64,000 nt of DNA, taken from contig CAZVGK010000007.1 in assembly GCA_964626665.1 (NCBI GenBank), forward strand, positions 24,505-88,504, written 5' to 3'. This DNA is from an uncultured Gemmatimonadota bacterium. Its GTDB lineage: Bacteria > SM23-81 > DAOVCL01. Shown one piece after another: positions 871 to 56,236 of the stretch. The notes beneath the pieces were generated by a model. That model did not search any database, was not told the DNA's origin, and worked only from the letters and a program-made list of their open reading frames with translations. Position 1 is the first letter of the stretch. Each line of letters opens with the position of its first letter. The position numbers and the translations under genes are program-made.

Positions 871-943
871 AAATCATTAAACTGACCGCTGCCCGCTTCA
901 GTGTAGCGACCACCTCTATTATAATGAAATTTTTCCCTCCCTG

Positions 944-2932
944 TCAAGGGCATTCTTCCACCCTAAGGGGATTGAACTCCCCTATGTAATCGGCCATCTG
1001 CTCGGTCCCCAGGACCTCCCTCAGGGCATCATCCTGGAAATTGGAGGGGAGATAACGGAAGAAGGAACCAAGGTTAAGCTGCTCCAGCAATGGGCCCCTA
1101 AACCTTTCTAAAACCCTGTCCATCTCCTCGCCCGGAAGCCAAAGGAGCTCCTCCAGGTTAGGGTTCCCCTCTAAGGTGATGAGTATGCCCCCAGAATCCT
1201 CTGCTTTTATCCCCTTAACCAGGCTGATATACTTGGCCCAAATCCCTCCCCACATAGGCCCTAAGAAATGATAGACCTTGGTAATCCCCCCCGCATAACA
1301 GAAGGGAAGGTCATCCTCCTTGGCCCCCACAAAAAACTTCCTCTTCAGTTTTGCCCCCAAGGAGTGGCCCCAAATCCGGCCTCCCCCCCCACAGAACACC
1401 CCCTTTGCCCCCACCCCTTGGTAATCCAAGGGGCGGACATAAACCTTGGAGCCATCCTTTCTCTCCACCTCCCAACTCCTTCCCTTGAGGACGAACTGGG
1501 GGCTTAAAGTCTCTATCGAGCCAATCTCCCTCCCGGACTTCAGGTCAAAGACCTGATAGCTCCCCTGGCTGCGGTCTATATTGGAATGGATAAACCCCCT
1601 CTCCGCTATAGCCTCGGCTCTGGGACCCAGCCAGTACACCCCCCCACCTGGCGACTGCACGAATTCGACCTTCTCCAAATGAATGAGAAGTTCCATAACA
1701 TCGGTAAGCTCTAAACCCAAGGGGGAGAGAGCCCTTTGGATGGCTTCTGGGGTGGCCCCTATCCTTCTCTTCTGATAAAGATAAGAGAGTATCTGCTGCA
1801 CCGCCACCGAGAGATAGAGGGGAGGATCCTCCTCCTCCAGCCACCCTAATTGGGCAAGTTCAAAGAGAAGCTTAAAGAAGGTTAACTCCCAATTATCCTT
1901 ATAGAGACCGTAAGCTACCAATTCTCCCCTTCTCCTGTTGCCTCGTCCCAACCTCTGTAGCAAAGCACTCAGCGAAGGGGGCGGGGAGATGAGAACCACC
2001 GCCTCAATGTCACCTATGTCCACCCCCAACTCCAGGGTCATCGTGGCCACACAGATCCCCACCCTCTCCCGATTCATCCCCCTCTCCACCCTTTCCCTCT
2101 CCACCCTGCTCAGGCTGGCATGATGCACCCATATCCTCTCCGGGTATTTCCAGAGCCTCTTTAGGAGCAAGGCTACCTCCTCCACCTTCTTCCTGGTGTT
2201 GCAGAAGACCAGGGCCTTCTTGATCCCCTTCCCCTCAAGCTCCCTGATCAACCCCTGCAGGTTATCGTCAAAGGGAAGCAGGGTATGTTTAATCACCCTC
2301 TTCCCCTTGGCCTGAACCACCTCAAAGGGGAAGAAATACCTCTCCCCTAAGGATATGGGATCAGCTATCGTTGCCGAAATAGCATAAAAGCGGAGGGGTT
2401 CCCCCCGCAGAAGCCGCAGCCTCTGCAGGAGCACCCGCAACTGATCGCCCCGATAGGTTCCATCTAAGAGGTGGATCTCATCCAGGCAGACGGCCTGCAG
2501 AGACTCCAATGCCTGGGGCGCCCGACAGAGGAGGGAGTCGAAGGACTCCGGGGTGGTAACGAGAGCAGGGGTGGGTTTCTGGGGGCGAAAATCTGGGTGA
2601 TCCATCGTCTTCCTAGACAGGCCAATCCTCAACCGCTCCAAAGGGCCTTTTAACCTCTTGTAGAGGTCGTTAACCAAAGCCCTGGTGGGGGAGACATAGA
2701 GGATGCTCAGCCCCCCCCAATCCTCCTTGAGGAGAAGCTCGGCCAAGGGGGCCATCACGGCCTCCGTCTTCCCGGTGGCCGCAGGCGAGGAGACGACCAG
2801 GTTTCTCCCTTGTAACACCCGGGGTATGGTCAGCCTCTGAATGGGGAGAAGATGGGGGAATGGGGAGAAGAAAGCCCCCCAAGAATGGCTCAGAAGCTCC
2901 CTGACCTCCCGCTCAGACCCCTTGAGGTTCAT
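944..2932 (-). CDS. superfamily-2 DEAD/DEAH-box helicase, Lhr-core-like (BrxHI-like?), last gene of the four-gene operon
   Basis: Walker A AATGKTEA, DEAH-type box CLDEIH, helicase C domain (VFCNTRKKVEE..), followed by a winged-helix-like and ~250-aa C-terminal region. It overlaps the upstream gene by 20 nt. Confidence 0.8.
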   Translation of the reverse strand: MNLKGSEREVRELLSHSWGAFFSPFPHLLPIQRLTIPRVLQGRNLVVSSPAATGKTEAVMAPLAELLLKEDWGGLSILYVSPTRALVNDLYKRLKGPLERLRIGLSRKTMDHPDFRPQKPTPALVTTPESFDSLLCRAPQALESLQAVCLDEIHLLDGTYRGDQLRVLLQRLRLLRGEPLRFYAISATIADPISLGERYFFPFEVVQAKGKRVIKHTLLPFDDNLQGLIRELEGKGIKKALVFCNTRKKVEEVALLLKRLWKYPERIWVHHASLSRVERERVERGMNRERVGICVATMTLELGVDIGDIEAVVLISPPPSLSALLQRLGRGNRRRGELVAYGLYKDNWELTFFKLLFELAQLGWLEEEDPPLYLSVAVQQILSYLYQKRRIGATPEAIQRALSPLGLELTDVMELLIHLEKVEFVQSPGGGVYWLGPRAEAIAERGFIHSNIDRSQGSYQVFDLKSGREIGSIETLSPQFVLKGRSWEVERKDGSKVYVRPLDYQGVGAKGVFCGGGGRIWGHSLGAKLKRKFFVGAKEDDLPFCYAGGITKVYHFLGPMWGGIWAKYISLVKGIKAEDSGGILITLEGNPNLEELLWLPGEEMDRVLERFRGPLLEQLNLGSFFRYLPSNFQDDALREVLGTEQMADYIGEFNPLRVEECP

Positions 2933-4262
2933 AGCGGTAATGGCGGTAATGATCCAGCAATTCCACCGCCTCCCTGAGGAACATCCTCACCCCCCTCTCC
3001 TTCAAATCCTTGGTCAACAGGGCTCTCACCCCTTGGTCCGCCCGAAATGAGGGGAAGGCCTGGCCGTAAAGTTCAATGACCTTCTCTAACATCAGGGAGT
3101 ACTCGGAGGTGGAGAGGGGGGAAAGGGTAATGGTTTTCCCCTGAGGGACAAGCTCCTCTATCCCCTGGTAGTAAGGGGAAGAGGAGGGGGTATAGCCGAG
3201 GACCAAAAATATATGGGAGGGACGCTGATAAAGGTAGGGGAAGGGACGCATACCGGAGTGAATGTACCCCTCCTCATCAACCCAACCTACATTTAGGCCT
3301 GGGTCCCTCTCCCCATCCCCCTTCTTTATCGCGGTCAACCGAGGAAGGTTGAGGGCGGTGCCCACCAGGCCCTTAAAGAGATAAAGGCCAATCCTCTGAT
3401 AGGGGGTCCACCAGAGGTGAAAGAGGGTCTCAGCCTCATCGATGACCAGCACCAACCCCTTTCCTCCTAATCCCTTAATCAGGTATCCTAAGCCGCTAAG
3501 CAGGTAACAGTAGATGTCCACTGCCGGGGTGTGATCTAAGAGGACCGGCAATTTCCAATATCTAAGGTAGTTTAAGTAATCCCTCCCCATCTCTTCCCCC
3601 CCGATCCAATTCCAGAGGGCAGGAAGGTCCTCATCCTGGGAGAGGAGCCAGAGGGCCTTGGAGAGGAAGAAATGGGGGGAGGGAAGGTCCATCCCCTTGG
3701 CTCTCCTCAATATTTCCGGGAAGCCTATCTCCTCATTCCCCTGGATAAACCTCAGGGTCCTGGTCAATTCCCGGTAGATGTGCTTGGGGCGATATGGGGT
3801 GACATCAAACCTATCGAGTTGCGCCCGGCCCACAGCGTATCCCTGCCGCAGGGCCCAGCCAAGGATATAGTCCAAGAGGTGGGTCTTCCCTGACCCATAC
3901 TCTCCCTCTATGGCCAGAACCTCACCGCCCTTGTGGGAGAAACCCTCAAAGGCCTGCTCCACCTCCCGCAGCTCCTTATCTCGGCCAAAGGTGAAGTCAC
4001 TGATGGCCAAGGAGGGAACCACTCCTAATCTGAAGGCCTCGATCATCCTTCGTGATCGGAAATCCCCCCCCTTGGTGGGGATATGCCGGGGCTGAGCAGG
4101 TGGTTTCTTCCTCTCGACCGGGGTAAGCAGCTTTAAGGTCTCCCGGTTCATCCAAAGGGTGAGGCCATTGGCAAACTCCACCAAGAGATGCATCCCTCGC
4201 CATCTGGTATCCACAACCTTCCCCTCACCTAAGCCTTGATGATAGACCTTACTCCCAATCAT
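2913..4262 (-). CDS. P-loop NTPase paralog 2 (GEYGSGKTHLLD Walker A; VLVIDEAE Walker B), BrxD/DUF2791-like
   Basis: 449-aa ORF with Walker A/B motifs and an N-terminal KOW-like region. It is a paralog of the preceding gene. Its start abuts the stop of the upstream gene (4262/4263). Confidence 0.75.
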   Translation of the reverse strand: MIGSKVYHQGLGEGKVVDTRWRGMHLLVEFANGLTLWMNRETLKLLTPVERKKPPAQPRHIPTKGGDFRSRRMIEAFRLGVVPSLAISDFTFGRDKELREVEQAFEGFSHKGGEVLAIEGEYGSGKTHLLDYILGWALRQGYAVGRAQLDRFDVTPYRPKHIYRELTRTLRFIQGNEEIGFPEILRRAKGMDLPSPHFFLSKALWLLSQDEDLPALWNWIGGEEMGRDYLNYLRYWKLPVLLDHTPAVDIYCYLLSGLGYLIKGLGGKGLVLVIDEAETLFHLWWTPYQRIGLYLFKGLVGTALNLPRLTAIKKGDGERDPGLNVGWVDEEGYIHSGMRPFPYLYQRPSHIFLVLGYTPSSSPYYQGIEELVPQGKTITLSPLSTSEYSLMLEKVIELYGQAFPSFRADQGVRALLTKDLKERGVRMFLREAVELLDHYRHYRYEPQGV

Positions 4263-5540
4263 TTAATACTCCTTATGATTCGCCTCTTCCTGAAGCTCCA
4301 TCTCCAAGGTCATCAATTGATCCCGAATAATCCTTCTGGCCATCTCCCTTCCTATGGGCTCAGCGGGATTGTTTCTCAGGAGGTGAAAGGCCTGAATTAT
4401 CCCCTTCACAAAGACCCGCCTATGGCCCACATCAGCATACCTCTCCTCATAGGCCACCTGGGCCAGGTGGGAGATGGTCTCCCTAAGGTTATCCCGGTGG
4501 AAGCTAAAGGGGGGATAGGCAGCCTGGTAGATAGCGGAGAGCTTCTCCCCCACTTCCCTGAGGAACTCCACCGGCTCCATCCCCAACTCCTCCAGGTTTA
4601 TCCTCACCCCACTGGGATTAAGCCCAGTGAGAACCCCGGAAAGCCTCTGACGCAGGGCTTCATAGACCTCCAATCTCTCCTCCAAGAGCTGCCTTTCATC
4701 GGGAATGGCATAGAAGATCATCACCCCGGGGAGCCTGCTGTTTCCACATTCATCTATCAGTTGCCTGAGGTTATCCATAGCTGCCCTCCTCTCCCGGGAG
4801 GAGGCAATGCTTAAACCTCTCTCCGCCTCATCAAAGAGGAGGACCAGGCCTGCATAGCCAATGGCCTTGATCCACTGGGCCAAGGATCTGAGCTGGCGGA
4901 AGGCGGTGGGCTTGTCCACCCTTTCGGTGATCCCATACTCATTGCGGATGGGGCGATCGATCTCTTCCCCCTTCAACCACTGGAGTATCCGTTCATAGTC
5001 CTGACCTCCCCTCTGCAGGGAGAGAAAGGCCTCCTTGACCGCATTGGCAAAGCTGGAGGACTCTATCCCTGCCAGGGAGCGGACATAGGAGGTGAGGTAC
5101 TCCTCCCCTTTCTCCCCAAACTCCTCCACCTTCTCCATATACCAGTTGCGGAGGAAACCATCGATCCCCCTCTCCCAGGGCTTTATCTCTCCCTCCCCCC
5201 TCATCGGATACATCAGGTTGGCCATCGTAGCCTTATAGACAAGCTCCAGCTTGTTGAAGGGGCATTCCACCGGGGAGAGGGCCACATAACTTACCGCATA
5301 ACCTCGCGACCAGCCTATATCCCTCATCCGGTAGAGGAAGTGGGTCTTCCCCCCTCCGTAATTGCCAACTACTAACTTGAAGGCCGAACCTCCTAACTTG
5401 ATAAAACTCTCTAAATACTCCTCATCTATTATCCCCAACCAGGGGTCCAACCCCACGGTAAAGGACTCTACCCCAAACTCTGGGGGGGTCCCGGTCCCCC
5501 CCAACCTGTTTATTATAGCCTTGGCCAACCCTGGTTTCAT
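4263..5540 (-). CDS. P-loop NTPase paralog 1 (GNYGGGKTHFLY Walker A; VLLFDEAE Walker B), BrxD/DUF2791-like
   Basis: 425-aa ORF with the same motif architecture as 2913-4262. It lies 4 nt downstream of the first gene. Confidence 0.75.
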   Translation of the reverse strand: MKPGLAKAIINRLGGTGTPPEFGVESFTVGLDPWLGIIDEEYLESFIKLGGSAFKLVVGNYGGGKTHFLYRMRDIGWSRGYAVSYVALSPVECPFNKLELVYKATMANLMYPMRGEGEIKPWERGIDGFLRNWYMEKVEEFGEKGEEYLTSYVRSLAGIESSSFANAVKEAFLSLQRGGQDYERILQWLKGEEIDRPIRNEYGITERVDKPTAFRQLRSLAQWIKAIGYAGLVLLFDEAERGLSIASSRERRAAMDNLRQLIDECGNSRLPGVMIFYAIPDERQLLEERLEVYEALRQRLSGVLTGLNPSGVRINLEELGMEPVEFLREVGEKLSAIYQAAYPPFSFHRDNLRETISHLAQVAYEERYADVGHRRVFVKGIIQAFHLLRNNPAEPIGREMARRIIRDQLMTLEMELQEEANHKEY

Positions 5541-5544
5541 TGGC

Positions 5545-6378
5545 TTACCCCCTTATGGAGAGATAGGCATATCTCGTCCCCTTCTCCTCATCATCAGGGA
5601 CAAAGATTACTTTGTCTCTCCTCTTTGTTGCCTCGAAAGTAGCCACCCAGAGGGATAACTCCTCCCCCCTTATCCTCCTTAAGCGGTAGAGATCGTAGCC
5701 AAATTGTGCCCTTCCGTAACCAATATAATTCGACTTGATGGGATTTGCCTTAAACCTATCCCCTTGCCTGAGAAAGGCAAGCTCTCCCAAAACCCCAACA
5801 ATCAGTGCCCTCTCCCCTTCCCCTCCCCTTAAGGCCCGGTGGTAGGCCTCCTTGAGCAGGGAGAGATAAGAATCGGGCTCAAATGGGCTTCCCTTAAGCT
5901 CCTCCTCAAACCTGAGGATGGAATCTACCACCTCCTGGGGGTTAAGCCTTATCTTCTTCACCGGTTCCGGCCCCCAGGAGATGGCCACCTCCCCCTGCAG
6001 GAAGTTGGGCTTCAGGGAGTAGAGGCCAGCATAGAGGTTAGGATACTGCCCACGCAGCTTAAACCCCTTAGCCTGCAACTCCCCCTCTAACTTCCGGCCA
6101 AAGTCGGATTTAAACTCCTCCTTCCACCGCTTTAACCTCAGCCTCTGATCATCCAGCCAGCGGCTCAAATTGGGGATAAGCTGGCCAGGTTCCAACCCAG
6201 CCTTGAGCTTCTCCATCTTCAAAAGGAGGGCCTCCATAACAAAGGGATTGGAAGAGGGCTCCCCCTCCATTCTCCCATATCCAGCCAGAAGATTGGCCAA
6301 CTCCTTGGCCCTCCTCTGAAACCTCAAAAGCCTATCCCTTAACTCCTTCATATTCCCCCTTCTATGGCCTTCAGTCAA
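5545..6378 (-). CDS. hypothetical 277-aa protein, first gene of the four-gene operon (unrecognised family)
   Basis: Long ORF co-directional and nearly contiguous with the two ATPases and the helicase. I recognise no motif in it. Confidence 0.6.
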   Translation of the reverse strand: MTEGHRRGNMKELRDRLLRFQRRAKELANLLAGYGRMEGEPSSNPFVMEALLLKMEKLKAGLEPGQLIPNLSRWLDDQRLRLKRWKEEFKSDFGRKLEGELQAKGFKLRGQYPNLYAGLYSLKPNFLQGEVAISWGPEPVKKIRLNPQEVVDSILRFEEELKGSPFEPDSYLSLLKEAYHRALRGGEGERALIVGVLGELAFLRQGDRFKANPIKSNYIGYGRAQFGYDLYRLRRIRGEELSLWVATFEATKRRDKVIFVPDDEEKGTRYAYLSIRG

Positions 6379-7125
6379 CCTTTACTTGCTGTTGGGGTTG
6401 AAGCCAGAATCATCGAAGTGGGTTGGCAACTCCCCTCGCTATAATTATAACCTTTACCTTCCCGAAATCAAGCAAATTATTTTCTCGAAAATAGCTCCCT
6501 GGCTAAATCACTGCTTCCCTAACTGAACAACCATCTCCGTAGTTGCCGATTATATCAGGTAACTAACTCTTCAGAGCCGAGGGATTACAATTTGCCTCTG
6601 TTACTTGAATGGGGAACTGGCGTGGGGAGTAAAGAAAACAGCTAAAGAATTTCTAAAAATAGCCGATAATAGGATCAAACTGTAGTAGCCCACAACAAAA
6701 ATCAAACATAATCGTTGCTTCTGTCGTTATGGATGATGAAATCCATAAGGAGACAAGATGTGGAGGACATCTCCCCTGGGCGGAGCCTCGGGCAAGCCTG
6801 ATGTCGACTTTACCTCTCCCTTGCAGGGAAAGGTTGGAGCCTACCCTGAGTCTTCGGCCCGAACTCAAGCCGAGAACTTGCCGAAGGATGAGGGTGAAAT
6901 TCCCCTCTAAGAAACCCCCTCCTTCTAACTCCCTCCCACCAGTGGAGGGAGAATTATAATCGAGGTCTGGAGACCTCTCCCACAACTGTGGTCAGAGAAC
7001 AGGGATCAGGGGAATCCATGGCAACCGACACCTGCCTGCCGTGCTCCCTGACCTCCGTAAGCTGTCAACAATTGGATAAAATTTTTTGTGAGCCACTATA
7101 GTTGCTCAAATTATCAATTTTCCCC

Positions 7126-7154
7126 TTGACAGACCTTTTGTAATCTGATAATCT
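7126..7154 (+). promoter_or_regulatory. sigma70-like promoter (TTGACA - 17 nt - TAATCT) upstream of the lipoprotein gene
   Basis: TTGACA at 7126-7131, 17-nt spacer, TAATCT at 7149-7154. An AGGAGGA ribosome-binding site (RBS) precedes the ATG at 7184. Confidence 0.4.
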
Positions 7155-7183
7155 TGAGAACAAAATCTAAACCAGGAGGAAAA

Positions 7184-9292
7184 ATGAGGGGCAAAAAGCT
7201 TATATTCTCCATATTTACCCTAATCCTGATGTTCGGGCTCTGGACAGGCTGTGGGAAGAAGGAGGGCCTTAACCCCGTCCAGGAAACCACTGGCACAGTT
7301 TTCATAGATACCCTTTACGCTTCCTCTGATACCCTGCAGGCTGGCGATACCCTGCTCATCACCGCCAGGGTAGTGGATGAGGACAACCTGCCCCGGCAGG
7401 GGGAGACGGTCAATTTCACTACCTCCTATGGAACCATAAGCCCAGGCTCGGCTACCTCGGATAGCCAGGGAGGGGTTTGGACCAACCTCATTGCCCAAGC
7501 CGATACCGCCGATCATCTGGCCAGGGTAACGGCAACGGTCACATCAAGTGGGGACAGCATGGGGCTCACCATCCCCGTTAAAGGAAGAAGGGAGGTGACC
7601 CCAGGCGCACCCTTTAATATCAGCCTAAAGATAACCCCCACCTCCCCCCTGTTGGCCAATGGGGCGGACACGGCCACCGTTGTGGCCACTGTAACCGACA
7701 TCCAGGGTCAGCCTGTTCCTGATGGAACACCGGTCACCTTCGTTGCGGGGGAGAAATTTGTGGATATCAACGGCGATGGCTCCTTCACCTCAGGGGTGGA
7801 CTCCCTGGTCATTGATGCCAACGGCGATGGGGAGTGGAATGCAGTGGGGAGCATCCCCTCAACGGCAACCACCTCCGGTGGCCAGGCTACCGTCCACTAC
7901 ATCTCCGGAACAAGCCCTCAAGCGGTCTACATCAAAGCCACCGCGGGGGCCGCCCAGAGCGATGGAGTAATCACCCTCAAGCCCTTGAGGCAAATCTGGG
8001 GTATAGACATTGGGGTGGACAGATCCTTCATTCAGGTCAAGGGGACCGGAGGAAATGAGGTGTGCGAGATCACGGCAACCGGACTGGACATATTCAACAA
8101 TCCCGTCCCTCAGGGATTGGAGATCTCCTTCCGCATCCTCCAGGGGCCAGCGGGAGGCGAGAGCCTGGAGGACTCCGGCTACGGGCCGATAACGAAGCTA
8201 ACCGACTCCGGCGGCCAGGCCAAGGTTCATCTACACAGCGGCACCCTCTCGGGAACCGTGCAAATCGAAGCCTTCTCCGATGGGGTCTATTCCCAGGCAA
8301 CTCAGGTGACGATCTGCAGTGGTCCCCCTTATGTTATCTCCCTGAGCGCAGATCCGCTAAACATAAGGGGTTGGGACATAGATGATGTCCCTTCAAATGT
8401 TTTGGCAATAGTCAGCGACAGGTTTGGCAATCCAGTTCCAGACGGCACCGCAGTTTACTTCTCTACGGAGGAGGGGCAGGTAGAGACGAAGAACAGCGTT
8501 ACCACAAATGGAAAGACTGAAGTTACCTACATCAGTTCCACTGACCCTTGGGATGACGGCATAGCCTGGGTGGTGGGCTCCACCAGAACCACCGATCCCC
8601 AGACAAGAACCATCAAGGACAGCGTGGGAATTATCGTTTCCGGACCGCCGGTTACCATCAACTTTATCGGGTATCCCCCGAGCTTGGAAGCGGACGGAAA
8701 GGACAAGGGCAAGATATTTGTGGAGGTCTTAGATGTAAACGGCCACTATGTTGTAGGGGGGACCGAGGTTAAGTTCGAGACGACTCAGGGGACGATCAGC
8801 GGCTCGGCAACAACTGAGGATGGGGTGCATGCCAGCATAGCCGAGGCCGAGATAACCAGTGAGATATTGGATAAGGACTACTCACTCACTACCCCTGATG
8901 ATGGAATAGGAGCTGTTGCTGCTGTAACGGCAAGATCAGGGTTGCTCGGGGGGGCTAGTGCCACTGTAAACATCAACTTCCGCACTACCTCGGCCAGTTC
9001 AGAAAATTCCTCCATTGATATTCCCGCTACGGTGGATATTAGTTCTCAAAATGCCTTCTCGGTTAATATCGAGGACTACTATGGCAACCCCTTGGGGGGA
9101 CACCAATTAAATGTAAGCTCCCAAGGAGGAGGGTCAGTTGCTCCTCCTTCTGGGACAACAAATGAATATGGAGTGGCCTCCGGTTTCATCTTCACTGCTC
9201 CCCCTGATTCGGGGAAGGTCTCCATCATAGTGGAAGATGCTGATCCAGGCTATGGAGGGATTACCTTGAGCAAAACGGTTGAGGTCAAATGA
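7184..9292 (+). CDS. surface lipoprotein with tandem bacterial Ig-like (Big/invasin-type) domains
   Basis: Signal peptide plus lipobox (LWTGC). Repeated ~90-aa units with the pattern TATVTD..G.PV.DGT.V.F. RBS AGGAGGA. The start is chosen at the internal ATG 7184 rather than 7154. Confidence 0.7.
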   Translation: MRGKKLIFSIFTLILMFGLWTGCGKKEGLNPVQETTGTVFIDTLYASSDTLQAGDTLLITARVVDEDNLPRQGETVNFTTSYGTISPGSATSDSQGGVWTNLIAQADTADHLARVTATVTSSGDSMGLTIPVKGRREVTPGAPFNISLKITPTSPLLANGADTATVVATVTDIQGQPVPDGTPVTFVAGEKFVDINGDGSFTSGVDSLVIDANGDGEWNAVGSIPSTATTSGGQATVHYISGTSPQAVYIKATAGAAQSDGVITLKPLRQIWGIDIGVDRSFIQVKGTGGNEVCEITATGLDIFNNPVPQGLEISFRILQGPAGGESLEDSGYGPITKLTDSGGQAKVHLHSGTLSGTVQIEAFSDGVYSQATQVTICSGPPYVISLSADPLNIRGWDIDDVPSNVLAIVSDRFGNPVPDGTAVYFSTEEGQVETKNSVTTNGKTEVTYISSTDPWDDGIAWVVGSTRTTDPQTRTIKDSVGIIVSGPPVTINFIGYPPSLEADGKDKGKIFVEVLDVNGHYVVGGTEVKFETTQGTISGSATTEDGVHASIAEAEITSEILDKDYSLTTPDDGIGAVAAVTARSGLLGGASATVNINFRTTSASSENSSIDIPATVDISSQNAFSVNIEDYYGNPLGGHQLNVSSQGGGSVAPPSGTTNEYGVASGFIFTAPPDSGKVSIIVEDADPGYGGITLSKTVEVK

Positions 9293-16919: not shown

Positions 16920-17490
16920 CAACCAGGAGACAGTTCACGGGGCGGCAAAGCCGCAAAGTTTAAAGAAAAAGACTCACCACGGATTTACACGGAATAACAC
17001 GGGAAGAGAATAGAGACTGCCGTCAGAATCGGGATTCTGACGGCTCAGGAATTTCCATTTTCTATTTTCTTGGATATAGGTTTGTTTCTGTGTCTTTCCG
17101 TGAGATTCCGTGGTGAGTTGTTATGATCTTCTTATCTATTCGAGTAGATTCGTTTATTCGTGTCATTCGTGTTCCTTCTTTAAGGAGTTGTGGGAGGCAT
17201 CTCCTGATGCCAATAAAAATGGTGCTGTCAGGAGTTATCTCCTGACAGCTCTTAAAAGGTCAGGAGACCTCTTCCACAAAAGAGGGATCTAACAGACCCC
17301 AATGCCGGATAGAGAGATTCCTACCGCACTTTAGTGCGGGCCTTAAGTCAATTACTAAATCCGAATGACGAAAAAGGCTTAAACCCAATAAACCTATGAG
17401 TAACGAGCTATGATTGCATTTTCCCCAGCAGCGGAATCCGTGTAATCCGTGGCTATTGTTTATCCGTGAGGTTCCGTGGTAAACTCTGCG
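16920..17490. repeat. intergenic hairpin/repeat mosaic (ccgtcagaatcgggattctgacgg 17019-17044; ggaggcatctcctgatgcc 17194-17213; gtgctgtcaggagttatctcctgacagc 17222-17249; 20-mer 17321-17340; 65-bp repeat 17398-17462 shared with 21990-22056)
   Basis: Modules match those at 420-870, 34836-34878, 57106-57134 and elsewhere. Confidence 0.85.
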
Positions 17491-36526: not shown

Positions 36527-39500
36527 TCAATCACAGTTGGGGTTCCCTCTTTTTGTTAAGTCTACCTCTTTGGTTTCTCCCCCTCTCAGTTCAAAGACCT
36601 CATCCCTAACCTGTACCTTCATTGGTTCTGCACCGCCGGGAAGGGCTTTAATTTTCAGATTGTCGTTACCAATGTCCAGATCAAGCCAATGCCCCCGATA
36701 TCGAAGATGAAAACTCACCACCTTTATCTCATCAGGGAATGAAGGATTAAACCTCAGTATATCACCGCGTGTCTCCAATCCTGTATAGCCCCGGGCAAGC
36801 ATATCCACACAGCCGGCCATGGCCCCGAGATGGATACCTTCCGGAGTGGTGCCGCCCTGAATATCGGCCATGTCTGTCTTCAGGGCCTGATTAAAGAGTT
36901 CCCACGAGCGTTCCCTGTCCCGCCGAGCAGCCACCCAGGAATGGACAATCCAGCTCAGGGACGAGCCGTTGGAGGTGCGTTTCAGGTAATAATCGATGTT
37001 TTGGGGGATGGTTTCATATTCAAAGGGGTAGCCAAGTTGGTTGAATAGCTTTTCCAGTTCCTCCGCGCTAAGGAGATAAAAGAGCATCAGGACATCGGCC
37101 TGTTTGGAGACCTTGTAACGGTTGGGAGTGTCCCCCTCAGCCTCCAGTATACGGTCCAGACGCTGGATATTCCCATACTTCTTTTGATAACCTTCCCAGT
37201 CGAACTCCTCCAGGCGGTCATATCCCTCAAACTGGCTGATGATCCCGCCATCGTGAAAAGCAACCCGCATCTTGTGGCTCATCTCTTCCCATCTCTCTAT
37301 CTCCGCTTTTTTTATGTCGAGTTTTTCGCATAGCTGCCTCCACTGCTCTTTAGGGAGAAGGTGAGGCAGCTCCAGGGCGCGGTTCATCACAAAGGCCACC
37401 ATAATGTTGGTGTAGGCGTTGTTGTTCAGGCCAGGCTGATCGGCTCCGGGATAGCTGTCATGATATTCGTCTGGGCCCATGACGCCATGGATCTCGTACC
37501 GTTCAAGCTCCCGGTTATAGGTGGCTATACTGGCCCAGAAACGGGCGATCTCCAGGATCATCTCACCTCCGTAAAAGGACAAAAAATCTAAGTCGTTAGT
37601 GATCTGGCAGTACTGCCATATATTATGGACAATGGCAACATTTATGTGCCGCTGCAGATGCGAATTGTCCGGGTGCCAGCGGCCTGATTTTGGGTTGAGA
37701 TGGACCAGTTGGGTCTCCTCCCTGCCGTTACTTGCACTCTGCCACGGATACATAGCCCCTTTGTAGCCAAGCTTGCGAGCGGCCCGCCGGGCCTCTTTGA
37801 GACGGCGATAGCGATACATTAGCAAGGTCCGGGTAATCTCAGGAGCCCTATAGTTAAGAACAGGGAAAATAATCATCTCATCCCAGAATATGTGTCCCCG
37901 GTAAGCCTCGCCGTGCCAGCCCCGGGAGGGCATCCCCACATCAATATCGATGGAGTGCATAGAAGAGCTTTGCAGAATGTGGAAGCTGTATAAACGGATG
38001 GTTCTCTGTATTTCATGATCAACTGCGGAGGCACTGAATTTCGCCCTGATGTCAAACCTGCGCCATTGATGTTCCCAGGTAAGGCTATGAGACCGAAGCA
38101 AACCGGCGAATCTTTCGGCGGCCACAACCACCTTCTCCGCCTCCAGGGCGCACTCAGAGACAGCAGGATCCCGGGAGGTAAACAAGGAAACCGTCTTTTC
38201 TATGGTGAGGTCGGCCCCTCTGGTAAGCTCTACTATAAAGTGTTGGGCAATATAGCCGGGCTCCCTCACTGGTTTAGGTTCAACAACCCAGGGTTCGCTA
38301 TCACGGAAGATTTCAGTCCTTGCCCCCAGCGCCACTTCCAACCTAGATTGATTGGTGCGCACCTTCAAAAGCATGCTGTTCTCATTAATCCTCCTGCTTT
38401 CCACCGGCTTCAGGTGCTTGTTATTCAAGTTCTTATAACGTTCCACGCCGGAGTTGGTGATTCGACCATCCAAGGCGGAGCTAATCTCTAATTTTCCAGC
38501 CCAGTTTAACGGCGTAATAACGGTCTCCAGGCCCGCCAAATGCATGTCTCCTGCGTGGACCAGGCGGCGCTGGAGCAGCCTAGTTTCCCTGCCTTTCTGG
38601 TCCCGGAACCGCACCGTCCGGTGGAGTACCCCTCTCTTGATATCCAGATATTGATGGTAGCAAAGTATCTTCACCGCCTCCAAATCAAACCATTCCTCAT
38701 CCGGGATGCGGAAATTGAGGCAAAGCCAGTTAGGCATATTGACCAGGTCCTCGTTTTCTATGGTGCGGCCAGGCATTTTTGTCTTCAGGCGGTTGTAGCC
38801 TCCGGCCAGGTAGGTTCCGGGATAGTGGACATTACCCGCGTTTGCCTCTGGCGCTGCCCCCCGGGTGGCAAAATAACCGTTTCCCAGGGTACACAGCGCC
38901 TCCCTCAGACCTTCTTCCTGGGGATCAAACCCCTCATATGTCAGGGACCAACTCCTCCCTTCTTCCAGCGCTGGGGTCAGTTTCTGCAGAAACTCCAGAA
39001 CCTGATTGGGGGATTCCAGCCTGGACACAGCCTCCGTGGATCGGGAACCTTCCCCTACCACAATGGCTATGCCACGCCCGGCAAGTGCCTCAAAGGCATC
39101 CTCATCGGTGATATCATCTCCTATATAAAAGGGAAAGATCCCTGGACCAACAAGATCCAAGGTGTCCAGAAGCCAAAAGAGTGCTTCTCCCTTATCCCAG
39201 TCGATGTCGGGCCTCAGTTCATAGACCTTCTTCCCCTCTGCCTTGCGAAGCTTGGGATAAAGTCCAATCATCTGATCTACAACCTCTTCCACCGAACCAA
39301 CCTGTTTGGCCTCAACATTTCGGTAATGAACCGCAATGGAAAATCTCTTGCGCTCCACCTGGGCGCCATCGATACTCGTAAGTTGCTGTTTCAGTTTGTC
39401 TTCTACCTCATCGATCACCGGGAGGAGTTTTTTGGCTTCATTATGCTCCAACCTAAGACCTCCCGGTCCCTCTATCTCGAAACCGTGGCTGCCTGCATAA

Positions 39501-40501
39501 TAGAGGTTGTCAATATCCACCCTCTCTTTCACATCTTTAAGGCCTCTTCCACTTATTATCGCTACGAGGCATTGATCGGCCAAGCTGGTAAGCGTTTTTC
39601 GCATCTCTTCAGAGAGGATGGCATCCTCGGGATGGGAGACAATCGGGGTTAGTGTGCCGTCATAATCGAGAAAAACGACTACCTCTTTGCCTTCTATCTG
39701 CTCCTTGATTTTCTCAAAGGAGTCCAGGGCATGGGGAAGTTCCCTTATCTCGGCCGCCATTTCTATTTCCGAAAGGTCCTCGACTACCAGGTCGGCTCCC
39801 CCCTCTTTCAGCGCTTTTTCCTGGTGTGCACGATCTACTCCGATAACCAGGCCAAAGTTCCCTTTGCTTCCCGCCTGAACCCCGGAGACAGCATCCTCCA
39901 CCACCACGCTCCTTTCCGGTTTAACCTTCAGCCGCCGGGCTGCCTCCAGAAAGATGTCCGGGTCAGGTTTGCCCATAAGGTCAAGGCTCTCCGCGTCCAC
40001 CCCGTCCATCTTAGCATCAAACAGGCCAGTGATACGGGCCGCATCCAGGATATTAACACAGTTCTTGCTGGAAGAGACGATGGCAGTCTTAAAGCCTCCC
40101 TTTCTGAGCCGGTTGATCAAGTCTATGGTGGATTCATAGACCTCCACCCCTTCACTTTTCAGCCGCTTCAAGAACAGCCGGTTTTTCCTGTTCCCCAGTC
40201 CGCAAACCGTTTCTTCATCGGGTGAATCAGCAACATTGCCGTATGCAATCTCTATGCCCCGGGAGATAAGAAAGCTCTTCACTCCGTCATAACGGGGTTT
40301 GCCATCAACCCATTTGCGATACTCTACATCGGAATCAAAGGGTTTAAATGTTCCGCCCTCGCCGTGTTTCTGCAGATATTCATCGAACAGTTCCTTCCAT
40401 GCCTGAGCATGAATTTTGGCGGTTTTAGTAACTACTCCATCCATATCAAAAATAACCGCGTCATACCCACCTCTGGAGATTTTATGTTTCTTATTACTCA
40501 T
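36527..40501 (-). CDS. trifunctional fusion: HAD beta-phosphoglucomutase + trehalose-6-phosphate phosphatase (OtsB-like) + GH65 trehalose/kojibiose-type phosphorylase
   Basis: N-terminal VIFDMDGVVTKT (beta-PGM HAD motif I), a second HAD domain VVFLDYDGTLTP (TPP), and a large central/C-terminal GH65 region. 1324-aa continuous ORF. Confidence 0.8.
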   Translation of the reverse strand: MSNKKHKISRGGYDAVIFDMDGVVTKTAKIHAQAWKELFDEYLQKHGEGGTFKPFDSDVEYRKWVDGKPRYDGVKSFLISRGIEIAYGNVADSPDEETVCGLGNRKNRLFLKRLKSEGVEVYESTIDLINRLRKGGFKTAIVSSSKNCVNILDAARITGLFDAKMDGVDAESLDLMGKPDPDIFLEAARRLKVKPERSVVVEDAVSGVQAGSKGNFGLVIGVDRAHQEKALKEGGADLVVEDLSEIEMAAEIRELPHALDSFEKIKEQIEGKEVVVFLDYDGTLTPIVSHPEDAILSEEMRKTLTSLADQCLVAIISGRGLKDVKERVDIDNLYYAGSHGFEIEGPGGLRLEHNEAKKLLPVIDEVEDKLKQQLTSIDGAQVERKRFSIAVHYRNVEAKQVGSVEEVVDQMIGLYPKLRKAEGKKVYELRPDIDWDKGEALFWLLDTLDLVGPGIFPFYIGDDITDEDAFEALAGRGIAIVVGEGSRSTEAVSRLESPNQVLEFLQKLTPALEEGRSWSLTYEGFDPQEEGLREALCTLGNGYFATRGAAPEANAGNVHYPGTYLAGGYNRLKTKMPGRTIENEDLVNMPNWLCLNFRIPDEEWFDLEAVKILCYHQYLDIKRGVLHRTVRFRDQKGRETRLLQRRLVHAGDMHLAGLETVITPLNWAGKLEISSALDGRITNSGVERYKNLNNKHLKPVESRRINENSMLLKVRTNQSRLEVALGARTEIFRDSEPWVVEPKPVREPGYIAQHFIVELTRGADLTIEKTVSLFTSRDPAVSECALEAEKVVVAAERFAGLLRSHSLTWEHQWRRFDIRAKFSASAVDHEIQRTIRLYSFHILQSSSMHSIDIDVGMPSRGWHGEAYRGHIFWDEMIIFPVLNYRAPEITRTLLMYRYRRLKEARRAARKLGYKGAMYPWQSASNGREETQLVHLNPKSGRWHPDNSHLQRHINVAIVHNIWQYCQITNDLDFLSFYGGEMILEIARFWASIATYNRELERYEIHGVMGPDEYHDSYPGADQPGLNNNAYTNIMVAFVMNRALELPHLLPKEQWRQLCEKLDIKKAEIERWEEMSHKMRVAFHDGGIISQFEGYDRLEEFDWEGYQKKYGNIQRLDRILEAEGDTPNRYKVSKQADVLMLFYLLSAEELEKLFNQLGYPFEYETIPQNIDYYLKRTSNGSSLSWIVHSWVAARRDRERSWELFNQALKTDMADIQGGTTPEGIHLGAMAGCVDMLARGYTGLETRGDILRFNPSFPDEIKVVSFHLRYRGHWLDLDIGNDNLKIKALPGGAEPMKVQVRDEVFELRGGETKEVDLTKRGNPNCD

Positions 40502-41793: not shown

Positions 41794-44745
41794 TTGGTTA
41801 AGTTCGCAATTCACCCCTGGAGTGAAGAATTGGGCTTTGAACCAGAGGACATCTTAGAGGGGTTAAACCCCAAGCAGAGGGAAGCGGTGATCCATGGGGA
41901 GGGACCCCTGTTGATCATCGCCGGGGCCGGAACCGGAAAGACAAAGGTCATCACCCACCGGATTGCCTGGCTGGTGGCCACAAAGATGGCCAGACCAGAG
42001 GAGATACTGGCCCTCACCTTCACCGATAAGGCCGCCTTGGAGATGGAGGAGAGGGTGGATGTCCTTCTTCCTTACGGCTTTGCCAATGTGTTCATCAGCA
42101 CCTTCCATGCCTTTGGAGACAGGCTGCTCCGGGAGTATGCCCTGGAATTGGGACTATCGAGTGAACTTAAGGTCCTCTCCCGGCCGGAGCAGCTTATCTT
42201 CTTCCGCCAGCACCTCTTTGAATTCCCCTTGAACTACTATCGGCCCTTGGGCTCACCCACCAAGTTCGTGGGGGCTATGGTGAACCTCTTCAGCCGGGCC
42301 AAGGATGAGGATGTCAACCCCAGGGATTATTTAAGCTATGCCCAAGCACTAAGGGAAGAGGCAACGGGAGATCCCCAACTCTCCGAGGAGGTCCAAAGAC
42401 AGGAAGAGCTTGGCCGCACCTACCAGCTCTATGAGGAGCTGATGGCCAAAGAGGGGGTGCTTGACTTTGGGGATCAGGTTGCCCTGGCCCTCAAGCTCCT
42501 GCGGGAGAGGGGCGGGGTCTTACGGGAGGTGCAGGGAAGGTTCAAGTTCATCCTGGTTGACGAATTTCAGGATACGAACTACTCGCAGTTTCAACTGCTT
42601 AACCTTTTAGCCCAAAGCCATAAAAACCTCTGCGTGGTCGGGGACGACGATCAATCCATCTACAAGTTCAGGGGGGCGGCGATCAGCAACATCTTGGGCT
42701 TTGCCGATGCCTATCCCGGAGCGAAAAAGGTTGTCCTCACTAAAAACTATCGTTCCGCCCAGGTTATCCTAGACTCCGCCTATCGGCTCATCCAGAACAA
42801 CAACCCCGATAGACTGGAGGTAAGGGAGGGGTTGGAGAAGAGGCTGGAGGCGACCATCGAGGGAGCCAGCGAGGTCAAGCACCTTCATTTTGACACGCTG
42901 ACCACGGAGTCGGATCGGGTGGCCGGGCTCATCGAGGAGAAGGTAGAGGGAGGGGGATATAAATACTCCGACTTTGCCATCTTAGTAAGGTCAAACAACG
43001 ATGCCGATCCCTTCCTTAGGGCTTTGAATATGAGGGGAATCCCCTACCGTTTCTCCGGCAATCGGGGCCTCTACCAGAGGGAAGAGATAAGGCTCTTGAT
43101 CTCCTTCCTCCGCTGCCTAGCGGATTTTCAGGACTCGGTCTCCCTCTTCAACTTGGCCTCTTCCCCCATCTATCGCCTAAATATGGAGGATCTAGTCAGG
43201 TGTATGACCTCAGCCAAAAGGGGGAACCGCACTCTGCATTGGGTCTTTGCCCACCCCGATGAATTCCCCCTATTGGAGGAGCTATCCCCCCACTCCCGGC
43301 AGAGGATAGAAAGGATAAGGGAGGATATCCATCGTTTCCTGGAATACAGCCGCACCGACCCTACCGGAGTGGTCCTCTACAAGTTTTTGACCGAAACTGG
43401 CTACCTGGCCCAGCTTACCCAATCAAAAAACCCGCAGGACCATCTCAAGGTGCAGAACATAGCCAAGTTCTTTGAGCTGGCCCGCAGGTTCCGGGAGCTT
43501 GCAGCCGAGGACAGGGTGCAGACCTTTGTGGAGCATTTAGACTCCTTGATGGAAGCCGGTGATGACCCCGCGGCCGCCGAGGCCGACCTGGATGCCGAGG
43601 CGGTGCAGGTTTTGACCATCCATCAGGCAAAGGGCCTGGAATTCAGGGTAGTGATTATGGTAGGGTTGGTGCAGAACAAGTTCCCTCACTCTAAGAGAAA
43701 GGAACCCCTTCCCCTTCCTGAAGGATTCATCAAGGAGGTTCTCCCCTCAGGGGACTTTCATCTCCAGGAGGAGAGGAGGCTCTTCTATGTGGGGATGACC
43801 CGGGCCAAGAGGGAGCTCTGGCTGACCAGTGCCCGGGACTACGGCGGCCAGCGGCCCAGAAAGATCAGCCAGTTCGTGCTGGAGGCCCTGGATAAGCCCA
43901 GGGCGGACACCGACTACCTTTCCACCTCCGCCCTAGAGGCCATTAGGAGGAATGCCCCGCGGCCCCAGAGGATAGCCGAACACCTCCCCCCTTGGCCCCA
44001 GGGGAAGCTTCTCCCCTTGAGTTTCTACCAGATGGATGACTACCTCACCTGCCCCCTTAAATACAAGTATATCCATATCCTCAGGGTCCCCCTTCTCCCC
44101 CACCACACAGTCATCTATGGCCAGGCCCTCCACGAGGCTGTGAGGGAATACTATCGGCGGAAGATAAAGGGAAGGCCGGTGAGTTTAGCTGATCTCATCG
44201 GGATATTTGAGGGTGCCTGGAGGAGCGAGGGTTTCCTCTCCCCCCAACATGAGGAGCAGAGCCTGCTTTCCGGGAGGAGGGCCCTCTCCAGCTTCTTCGA
44301 GGCCCAGGAGAGGGAAAGGATCATCCCCATCTTGGTGGAGGAGGAGTTCAGCTTCATCCTCGATGGAAACAGGGTCACCGGCAGGTGGGATCGGGTTGAC
44401 CGGCGGGATGGGGGGATCTACATCGTGGATTTCAAATCCTCACAGGTAAGGGACCAAGAGAGGGCAGACAAAAGGGCAAGGGAGAGCACCCAATTGGCCC
44501 TCTATGCCTTAGCCTATGAGCAGATCTATGGGGAGGTGCCCCAGAGGGTAGAACTCCATTTCTTAGAGTCAGGGATGGTGGGATTGCACCCCATAGGTGA
44601 AAGGGACCTCAGTAGGGCCAGGGAACTGGTGCAGGAGGCCTCCAAGGGGATTAGAAAGAGGGATTTCCCCCCTCGCCCCAAGTGGCTGGCCTGCAAGTAT
44701 TGTCCCTTCTCCGGGATCTGCCCCCATTCATCCGATGGGGTTTAG
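41794..44745 (+). CDS. UvrD/PcrA-like superfamily-1 helicase fused to a C-terminal PD-(D/E)XK RecB/Cas4-type nuclease with an Fe-S cysteine cluster (AdnB/AddA-like)
   Basis: GAGTGKT Walker A, UvrD motifs. C-terminus has C..(LTCPLKYKY)..CKYCPFSGIC. TTG start presumed. Confidence 0.8.
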   Translation: MVKFAIHPWSEELGFEPEDILEGLNPKQREAVIHGEGPLLIIAGAGTGKTKVITHRIAWLVATKMARPEEILALTFTDKAALEMEERVDVLLPYGFANVFISTFHAFGDRLLREYALELGLSSELKVLSRPEQLIFFRQHLFEFPLNYYRPLGSPTKFVGAMVNLFSRAKDEDVNPRDYLSYAQALREEATGDPQLSEEVQRQEELGRTYQLYEELMAKEGVLDFGDQVALALKLLRERGGVLREVQGRFKFILVDEFQDTNYSQFQLLNLLAQSHKNLCVVGDDDQSIYKFRGAAISNILGFADAYPGAKKVVLTKNYRSAQVILDSAYRLIQNNNPDRLEVREGLEKRLEATIEGASEVKHLHFDTLTTESDRVAGLIEEKVEGGGYKYSDFAILVRSNNDADPFLRALNMRGIPYRFSGNRGLYQREEIRLLISFLRCLADFQDSVSLFNLASSPIYRLNMEDLVRCMTSAKRGNRTLHWVFAHPDEFPLLEELSPHSRQRIERIREDIHRFLEYSRTDPTGVVLYKFLTETGYLAQLTQSKNPQDHLKVQNIAKFFELARRFRELAAEDRVQTFVEHLDSLMEAGDDPAAAEADLDAEAVQVLTIHQAKGLEFRVVIMVGLVQNKFPHSKRKEPLPLPEGFIKEVLPSGDFHLQEERRLFYVGMTRAKRELWLTSARDYGGQRPRKISQFVLEALDKPRADTDYLSTSALEAIRRNAPRPQRIAEHLPPWPQGKLLPLSFYQMDDYLTCPLKYKYIHILRVPLLPHHTVIYGQALHEAVREYYRRKIKGRPVSLADLIGIFEGAWRSEGFLSPQHEEQSLLSGRRALSSFFEAQERERIIPILVEEEFSFILDGNRVTGRWDRVDRRDGGIYIVDFKSSQVRDQERADKRARESTQLALYALAYEQIYGEVPQRVELHFLESGMVGLHPIGERDLSRARELVQEASKGIRKRDFPPRPKWLACKYCPFSGICPHSSDGV

Positions 44746-51870: not shown

Positions 51871-56236
<4,366 letters not shown>

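Follow-up and report, generated by a model that had tools for sequence, protein, structure and literature searches.

The 64,000-nucleotide (nt) window analysed here, positions 24,505 to 88,504 of contig CAZVGK010000007.1 (assembly GCA_964626665.1) from an uncultured Gemmatimonadota bacterium, carries on its minus strand, at 944-6351, a four-gene operon that encodes a protein here called X, two paralogous BrxD-type ATPases (ATPase-1 and ATPase-2) and a helicase of the Lhr/BrxHI type. The cassette recurs with the same gene order in bacteria and archaea; X, ATPase-1 and ATPase-2 form its invariant core, and the fourth position is variable: most copies have an Lhr-like helicase there, one archaeal lineage has a PIN domain fused to ATPase-2, and many WOR-3 genomes lack an adjacent helicase. 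The combination of a PF10923 ATPase with a BrxHI- or SngC-like helicase is an already known type of module, and what is new is its autonomous four-gene form, the winged-helix partner family, the duplicated ATPase and the Tudor-like domain. We give an even chance to the reading that the cassette is an autonomous four-gene variant of the ATPase-plus-helicase defence module that works as a helicase loader, and a role against mobile elements in general is rated at even odds or slightly better.

The four open reading frames (ORFs) are tightly packed, as seen in the ORF list and the junction sequences. X and ATPase-1 are separated by a 4-nt gap (TAA-GCCA-ATG), ATPase-1 and ATPase-2 abut with 0 nt between them (TAAATG), and ATPase-2 and the helicase gene overlap by 20 nt, which is the spacing reported in a first-pass annotation of the window made from the letters alone. 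The arrangement X, ATPase-1, ATPase-2, helicase is a real operon and goes beyond chance, because dozens of unrelated contigs show the same gene order. All on the minus strand, gene 1, which is unannotated in databases, encodes X (5545..6351, 268 amino acids, aa), and is followed by the genes of ATPase-1 (4263..5540, 425 aa), a full-length BrxD/SngB-type P-loop ATPase and the best-conserved component, ATPase-2 (2913..4262, 449 aa), a diverged BrxD-type ATPase with a Tudor-like N-terminus and a Pro/Lys-rich linker, and the superfamily 2 (SF2) helicase of Lhr/BrxHI/SngC type (944..2932, 662 aa). X most likely begins at ATG 6351, because a strong ribosome-binding site, GAAGGGGGAAT, lies directly before this codon, all X homologues begin at the corresponding MKEL, and the source annotation's own call is 268 aa; the alternative start, TTG at 6378, would give a product of 277 aa (5545-6378), the length assumed in the first-pass annotation. 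A consensus scan found a promoter-like site, TTGATT-16-TATAAT (6444..6471, minus strand, 10/12 matches), located 66-93 nt upstream of TTG 6378 and 93-120 nt upstream of ATG 6351, and by this pattern match it is a tentative candidate for the operon promoter. The G+C content of the operon, 0.52-0.60, is like that of the next 10 kb, 0.48-0.60, and thus gives no compositional hint of recent acquisition.

Searches with X led to 23 loci (21 distinct loci together with L034 and L035), and a metagenome scan added contigs that were mostly too short for context, 14 of them with readable sequence downstream of X. ATPase-1 follows X in 21 of these 23 loci and in 12 of the 14 readable metagenome contigs, ATPase-2 follows ATPase-1 wherever the sequence continues, and two ATPase paralogues are present in every copy examined. 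The helicase gene is adjacent in 11 of the 23 loci, and L033 and L056, retrieved by other searches, have it in the same position; in L007 and L009 two to five unrelated genes intervene, and no helicase was found in the available flank of L010, L015, L022, L023 and the WOR-3 loci L031 and L032, the last two found through ATPase-2. The complete colinear order (L011, L012, L014, L016, L018, L026, L028-L030, L033, L034, L035 and L056) is seen in Zixibacteriota, Latescibacterota, one complete Gemmatimonadota chromosome and several unclassified bacteria, as well as in five Methanoperedens species, another archaeon, a Promethearchaeota (Asgard) contig and a high-G+C bacterium, and tight spacing or overlaps between the genes recur in other phyla. 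Overall, the cassette is distributed over bacteria of the Fibrobacterota-Chlorobiota-Bacteroidota (FCB) group, Aminicenantes, Methanoperedens and Promethearchaeota, patchily across both domains of life. Homologues of these genes, whose co-localisation in other genomes had been proposed as a check of the first-pass annotation, are therefore co-localised.

The four proteins also diverge together. Identities for X, ATPase-1, ATPase-2 and the helicase are, respectively, 83, 92, 81 and 82% in L011, 47, 67, 51 and 49% in L007, and 30, 48, 29 and 42% in L026, and this co-variation across loci, displaced helicases included, argues for co-evolution. The genome nearest to the window, which lies on a 103.8-kb metagenome contig, is a Zixibacteriota metagenome-assembled genome, with 81-92% protein identity and shared flanks. 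A variant of the cassette occurs in Methanoperedenaceae (L039 3292-7677 and L040 2752-7104), where X (288-299 aa) and ATPase-1 are followed by a fusion of ATPase-2 with a Zn-ribbon and a PIN_4 domain (739 aa); both loci lack a helicase gene, and HD-domain and AAA_15/AAA_21 genes come next. In a separate metagenome contig (L041, 1750-1982), whose X is 91% identical to that of the window, homology to the window ends at the end of X; the next ORF is not ATPase-1 and, by eye alone, resembles a four-helix-bundle protein of the 23S rRNA intervening-sequence type. Either a rearrangement or insertion at the strain level or a break in the assembly accounts for this.

Both ATPases belong to Pfam family PF10923 (BrxC_BrxD, formerly DUF2791), whose gathering threshold is 22.2 bits. 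ATPase-1 scores 162 bits (2.7e-47) over profile positions 6-404 of 414, and ATPase-2 scores 85 bits (6.7e-24) in its N-terminal P-loop part alone (profile positions 5-124), with the Walker A and Walker B motifs intact in both proteins. These motifs read GNYGGGKT (5343-5366) and LFDEAE (4821-4838) in ATPase-1, and GEYGSGKT (3882-3905) and IDEAE (3429-3443) in ATPase-2. Among 19 ATPase-1 and 16 ATPase-2 orthologues neither Walker A (GxYGxGKTH) nor Walker B (DEAE) varies, and the two sets have about 90 and about 55 invariant positions, respectively; the identity of ATPase-1 across phyla is 47-92%. For both ATPases the PADLOC models rank BrxD first and Shango SngB second, with values of 5e-36 (BrxD) and 4e-22 (SngB) for ATPase-1 and 6.5e-12 (SngB) for ATPase-2. 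The NCBI name for such proteins is "BREX system ATP-binding domain-containing protein". Against the NCBIfam BrxD equivalog NF033438, however, ATPase-1 and ATPase-2 reach 126 and 76 bits, far below the cut-off of 350, and for this reason both are members of the BrxD family but not BrxD itself. The view of the two genes as a diverged paralogue pair of BrxD/DUF2791 type, put forward in the first-pass annotation, is thus supported by Pfam, PADLOC and NCBIfam. No solved structure matches ATPase-1 by sequence. BrxD has been described as a stand-alone AAA+ ATPase of the ORC/Cdc6 type (ORC, origin recognition complex) without a DNA-binding domain of its own, with a helix-extension-helix insert after strand 2, an arginine finger and a C-terminal helical lid; it is tightly linked to BrxHI and was proposed to load or activate it (PMC12839542).

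ATPase-2 has an additional domain at its N-terminus. Its first ~48 residues (4119-4262, minus strand) are predicted, from profile comparison with the PDB, to form a Tudor-like beta-barrel with the consensus V-x-H-P-x-F-G-x-G-x-V ... V-x-F ... W, followed by a Pro/Lys-rich linker that leads into the ATPase. The profile of this domain matches the Tudor domain of KDM4A (3e-4) and the C-terminal domains of UvrD (7egs_B, 2e-3) and PcrA (6yi2_A, 5.7e-3). With a single orthologue as query, the PDB matches consist of UvrD-type C-terminal domain entries alone, the two best being 7egs_B and 6yi2_A, and RVRHPLFGEGT is aligned with RVRHAKFGEGT. The Pfam hints of PcrA_UvrD_tudor and CarD_TRCF_RID stay below threshold, with 14 bits for PF21196, whose cut-off is 23.9. 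Bacterial, Methanoperedens, Asgard and high-G+C orthologues have the domain, and a divergent branch found on plasmids lacks it. The C-terminal domains of UvrD and PcrA, small beta-barrels with the motif R-V-x-H-x-x-F-G-x-G, bind the beta subunit of RNA polymerase, and the Tudor-like domain of ATPase-2 could plausibly act as a tether to a partner, with RNA polymerase among the candidates.

The helicase contains the Pfam domains DEAD and Helicase_C, with motif I AATGKT at 2765-2782, motif II DEIH at 2471-2482 and motif VI QRLGR at 1943-1957. Its match to PADLOC BrxHI (3.2e-73, 245 bits) covers residues 25-506, and SngC follows at 2e-69; together with the overlap between its gene and that of ATPase-2, this makes it a BrxHI-type helicase adjoining an ATPase of the BrxD family. 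The nearest solved structures are those of Mycobacterium smegmatis Lhr (5v9x and 7lhl, 1e-24), in agreement with the Lhr-like, BrxHI-type assignment of the first-pass annotation. The protein shares the SF2 motifs with Lhr and Lhr-core, its nearest solved relatives, but it scores only 165-169 bits against NCBIfam Lhr-type models (including PRK13767), whose cut-offs are ~850, with alignments that extend to about residue 502-505. The C-terminal ~150 aa are matched by no model, and this region is shorter or absent in archaeal orthologues (523-527 aa). Moreover, unlike Lhr, whose partners are MPE or Nei2, the helicase of the cassette is coupled to PF10923 ATPases. SngC, BrxHI, DruE and DpdJ form an immunity-associated clade of SF2 helicases (PMC12278908).

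X has no match among Pfam, PADLOC, NCBIfam or PHROGs models, and to that extent the first-pass remark that it has no recognisable motif still stands, although the 277-aa length does not. A word-indexed search retrieved 16 close homologues (37-100% identity), and the X profile, run against 1.84 billion cluster representatives defined at 50% identity, found 913 clusters with E<=1e-3, of which 263 reach E<=1e-30, with members nearly all 260-300 aa long; by these profile matches X represents a large conserved family without a database entry. What had been described as an extra upstream gene, with conservation of its ORF to be checked, is therefore a real, conserved and obligatorily linked component, as seen from homologue and locus comparison, and its structure is predicted with confidence. 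The AlphaFold2 model (predicted local distance difference test, pLDDT, 91.2) consists of a three-helix bundle (residues 1-94, 6070..6351, minus strand), a five-strand beta-meander followed by two helices (residues 95-180, 5812-6069, minus strand), with invariant GQYPNLY and WGPE in the meander, and a C-terminal alpha/beta winged-helix-like domain (residues ~181-268, 5548..5811, minus strand). The last of these has the H-H-H-beta-hairpin order of a winged helix in the model, and its nearest structural matches are the winged helices of ORC1, Cdc6 and Cdt1, while fold searches with the whole length of X return generic helical-bundle matches alone. Asgard homologues of X have an inserted Rho_N/SAP-like helix-extension-helix motif, for which the Pfam Rho_N match is weak, and this insert again points to nucleic-acid binding. 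Two other identities were considered and rejected: X as BrxA, BrxB or TerB was ruled out by the lack of any Pfam or PADLOC match, and a nuclease motif spotted by eye around ATF(D/E)ATK has no fold support.

All-against-all bit scores separate the cassette from the pairs already described. Within the ATPase-1 clade scores are 330-480, falling to ~80-100 against the plasmid branch and to 70-85 against BrxD or SngB, and ATPase-2 is even more remote from all of these. For the helicase the corresponding values are 236-560 within the clade, 173-246 against the plasmid branch and 119-179 against BrxHI or SngC. By these scores the cassette and the BrxD-BrxHI and SngB-SngC pairs are sister lineages, and the duplication of the cassette ATPase is ancient. 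A tblastn search of plasmids with ATPase-1 retrieved distant relatives alone (<=29% identity), which fall into three groups: canonical BrxD (~25% identity), Shango SngB, as in Mesorhizobium (TerB_N protein, ATPase, helicase), and the four-gene layout of the cassette itself, on Desulfomonile tiedjei pDESTI.01 and on plasmid3 of Aulosira laxa NIES-50. In these last two, the first gene encodes a 279-aa protein that aligns with the X profile at hhalign probabilities of 85% and 95% (E 6.5e-6 and 5.7e-8, respectively), and by this comparison it is a remote homologue of X. On pDESTI.01, AbiEii/AbiEi toxin-antitoxin genes lie ~3 kb upstream of the cassette, and on the Aulosira plasmid (L038 1-10554) the cassette copy stands directly after the type-2 BREX tail PglZ-BrxD-BrxHI. 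This conjugative plasmid therefore has both kinds of ATPase-helicase pair side by side. No system model in PADLOC-DB 2.0.0 fits the cassette, consistent with the first-pass statement that it matches no named system, and no description of the four-gene arrangement was found in the literature on DUF2791/BrxD, BrxHI, SngB/SngC and Shango.

A defence function is suggested by kinship, as the characterised PF10923 relatives and the closest helicase models, BrxHI and SngC, all come from anti-phage systems. Exchange of helicase and PIN-type effectors is typical of conflict systems, and the plasmid copies beside AbiE and type-2 BREX, along with the PIN variant, strengthen the inferred role in defence. 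As a lesser reading, the cassette may represent a new, widespread, effector-swapping defence family in which X would be a new sensor or adaptor fold.

The mechanism that we propose is the adaptor-guided, ATP-dependent loading or activation of an effector on a target nucleic acid, with the physical interactions predicted from domain content. The two ATPase paralogues would probably form a hetero-oligomeric ATP-driven switch, as suggested by the retention of the catalytic motifs in both. The winged helix that ORC/Cdc6-clade ATPases normally carry would here come in trans from X, which would probably target the complex to nucleic acid, and the Tudor-like domain of ATPase-2 would probably tether it to its partner, plausibly RNA polymerase. 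The most likely target would be the DNA of an invading phage or plasmid, or an intermediate of its replication or transcription. Upon target recognition, the complex would load or activate the effector, a 3'-5' helicase of Lhr type or, in the variant, the PIN domain, and interference would run without a methylation-based mark of self and non-self. The loading of MCM by ORC/Cdc6 and Cdt1 is comparable in working principle alone, as it also combines AAA+ proteins of the ORC/Cdc6 clade (PMC12839542), a winged-helix partner and a helicase. No sequence homology of the cassette proteins to ORC, Cdc6 or Cdt1 is detectable, and the helicase is a monomeric-type, Lhr-like SF2 enzyme and not a hexameric MCM.

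The main competitor of the defence module is a housekeeping role in genome maintenance, possible although unlikely in our estimate, in which the ATPase heteromer and the winged-helix adaptor, tethered through the Tudor domain, would load the Lhr-type helicase where RNA polymerase has stalled, at R-loops or on damaged DNA, with mostly vertical inheritance in lineages such as WOR-3. A more specific version, a shade more doubtful, is an unrecognised maintenance pathway of FCB-group bacteria, Asgard archaea and the anaerobic methanotrophic archaea (ANME) of group ANME-2d, where an ORC/Cdc6-like heteromer and a Cdt1-like X would load the helicase at sites of RNA polymerase by way of the UvrD-like Tudor domain; it would be a prokaryotic machine of loader, adaptor and helicase whose logic is comparable to that of ORC-Cdc6-Cdt1.

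The genomic setting weighs against defence and is consistent with maintenance. In 23 loci, the three genes closest to the cassette on either side are mostly of the housekeeping kind. FtsK lies next to it in L010 and L015, purH in L007, a UvrA-like giant ABC protein and phenylalanyl-tRNA synthetase (PheRS) in L009, and V-ATPase subunits abut X in L019; fructose-bisphosphatase (FBPase) and lipopolysaccharide (LPS) genes are also among the neighbours. In Methanoperedens (L028 4607-7554 and L030 6824-9771) the cassette is located directly downstream of top6B-top6A (Topo VI) on the same strand. In two WOR-3 genomes (L031 9311-12061 and L032 9334-12019), X and the two ATPases are followed by a cyclic nucleotide (cNMP)-binding protein and an OmpA-family protein with CarboxypepD_reg repeats, and because the two genomes have the same local synteny, the cassette looks vertically inherited there. 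No helicase occurs within 8 kb in these two loci; its gene may lie elsewhere in the genome, or the cassette may do without one. In L021, L025 and L050, X is found by itself. Moreover, ATPase-1 is 47% identical between archaea and bacteria, which is unusually high for a defence gene, and most copies lack a nuclease, toxin or modification enzyme. X and both ATPases have no match in PHROGs, where the helicase matches generic phage DNA-helicase families alone, and a scan of viral contigs with the X profile returned no relative.

The operon of the window conforms to this pattern, being surrounded by LPS biosynthesis, adhesin-like and other housekeeping genes, and a HicA/HicB pair ~2 kb beyond the helicase is its sole defence-type neighbour. 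The "typical defence-island context" of the first-pass annotation is thus not seen, either in the window or around most chromosomal copies. Matches of neighbouring genes to the MADS system (mad3, mad8) trace to the generic UvrA-like ABC ATPase in L009 and for this reason were not counted as defence context, and matches to PD-T4-6 most likely come from ordinary Ser/Thr kinases beside the cassette in L032 and L035. A phage or prophage origin was ruled out, with no PHROGs match for X or the ATPases and no viral-contig relative of X.

Other observations are divided between maintenance and defence. The flanks of L011 are shared with the window, in line with maintenance, but L012 (73-88% identity) has the operon block alone in common with it. 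The repair helicase Lhr is the nearest solved relative of the helicase, and the Tudor motif matches the RNA polymerase-binding domain of UvrD and PcrA; on the other hand, the helicase scores 245 bits against BrxHI and 169 bits against the Lhr-type repair models. A maintenance pathway also fits poorly with the anti-phage origin of every characterised PF10923 member and of BrxHI and SngC, with the plasmid copies beside AbiE and BREX, with the alternation between helicase and PIN at the effector position, and with the patchy distribution over both domains of life.

The autonomous defence module must also be distinguished from Shango, a system of a TerB protein, an ATPase and a helicase that protects against phages. 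The cassette would be a divergent Shango subtype if SngA had been replaced by X and SngB had been duplicated, with the Shango mechanism in common, and this seems improbable to us. Both systems combine, in the same order and tightly linked, an accessory protein, an ATPase of PF10923 type and a DEAD/DEAH SF2 helicase, with no recognised nuclease or methylase in Shango as in most cassette copies, and the PADLOC SngB and SngC models match both ATPases and the helicase, respectively. However, the first gene of the cassette encodes a 268-aa helical-bundle and winged-helix protein unrelated to the TerB-domain SngA: X has no TerB or SngA match in Pfam or PADLOC, and SngA of a reference Shango locus (L036) is not matched by the X profile even at a permissive threshold. 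Every cassette copy examined has two ATPases, one of them with a Tudor-like N-terminus, as opposed to the single SngB of the three-gene Shango operon. Bit scores set both the ATPases and the helicases of the cassette apart, as clades of their own, from SngB and SngC, which are no nearer to the cassette than BrxD and BrxHI; SngC and BrxHI score 254 bits to each other, compared with the 119-179 bits that link them to the cassette helicase.

Type-2 BREX likewise includes a stand-alone ATPase tightly paired with an Lhr-like helicase, BrxHI, that carries a winged helix and a beta-barrel (PMC12839542), but the cassette stands alone without PglZ, PglX, BrxC and PglW, its ATPase is duplicated and X is added. 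Its BrxD-like and BrxHI-like matches and the position of the Aulosira copy directly after PglZ-BrxD-BrxHI could suggest that it belongs, as a fragment or an accessory module, to a nearby type-2 BREX (Pgl) system, but this is highly improbable and is refuted at the window locus. None of PglZ, PglX, BrxC/PglY and PglW is found either in the window, all 64 kb of it, or within 10 kb past its left end (where ORFs >430 aa were all otherwise identified), ~25 other loci lack BREX core genes in their fetched flanks (up to 8-10 kb), such genes flank the cassette on the Aulosira plasmid only, where a BrxD and a BrxHI distinct from the cassette proteins are encoded next to it, and both ATPases score far below the BrxD cut-off. 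The observation that PglX, PglZ and BrxC are missing from the window, made in the first-pass annotation, therefore extends beyond its left end, and the complete BREX locus that the same annotation considered might continue outside has no core gene in those 10 kb. Without a BREX core gene and without a TerB protein, the cassette is neither a BREX fragment nor a canonical Shango system.

Few parts of BREX and Shango are as poorly understood as the BrxD-BrxHI and SngB-SngC pairs, and here such a pair occurs in an autonomous and widely distributed form, with two informative extras: a winged-helix partner family (~900 clusters, no database entry) and a predicted Tudor domain of RNA-polymerase-binding type. 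The cassette thus offers a minimal system and a concrete hypothesis for these ATPases, the adaptor-guided loading or activation of a helicase. If the defence reading is true, it would add a new family mainly of poorly studied phyla and of Asgard and ANME archaea. If it is not, ATPase-helicase modules of "BREX type" would also perform housekeeping functions, and the annotation of such matches would change.

The sequences that flank the operon were also considered. Downstream of the helicase, the region ~430-940 contains several independent hairpins with 10-11-bp stems, and Tandem Repeats Finder and Rfam returned no array and no family there; the "450-bp hairpin-repeat array" of the first-pass annotation thus dissolves into separate short hairpins, and an RNA element or repeat array at this position was ruled out. 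Short perfect hairpins cluster at 660-860, and two adjacent GGACAG-N10-CTGTCC hairpins (736-757 and 767-788; 0.05 expected by chance) lie inside a 28-nt imperfect inverted repeat (731-793). A perfect sigma-70 consensus, TTGACA-18-TATAAT (12/12; 918-947, minus strand), overlaps the stop codon of the helicase and is directed into the hairpin-rich 450-nt spacer, toward an 80-aa ORF (50-292); judged by this consensus, a small RNA or the small genes downstream could be transcribed from it. The 80-aa ORF and its 120-aa neighbour have no Pfam match, and the pair had been described as DUF5678-like and protease-like, which finds no Pfam support.

A 22-nt inverted repeat, TGTAGGAGAGGTCTCCAGACCT, present at 806-827 and 6963-6984 and 21/22 complementary, brackets the operon and its upstream region. 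One-mismatch copies of its palindromic core, GGTCTCCAGACC, occur at 431-442, 17258-17269 and 38522-38533. As termini of the cassette, and so as evidence of mobility, these repeats were rejected, given this recurrence of the core in the window. Neither L011 nor L012 has the repeat, and the block that L012 has in common with the window does not include it; it therefore looks like a genome-specific element resembling repetitive extragenic palindromes (REP-like). On the other side of the operon, a 775-nt gap (6379-7153) separates X from a divergent Big_1/invasin-like gene (7154-9292). A 110-aa ORF with a TTG start in this gap (6653-6985) has no family match and is probably spurious, and the source annotation has a 50-aa gene alone there.

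Further along the window, a 983-aa fusion of an AddA-like UvrD helicase with a PD-(D/E)XK nuclease (41794-44745) lies close to an 889-aa SbcC/Rad50-like AAA_23 protein (45983-48652), and the two likely constitute a double-strand-break repair cluster. Additionally, a 1324-aa fusion of a haloacid dehalogenase (HAD) hydrolase, a trehalose-phosphatase and a GH65 glycoside hydrolase/phosphorylase (36527-40501, minus strand) and an OtsA-OtsB fusion (GT20 and trehalose-phosphatase, 51871-54084) suggest an unusual set of trehalose metabolism genes.

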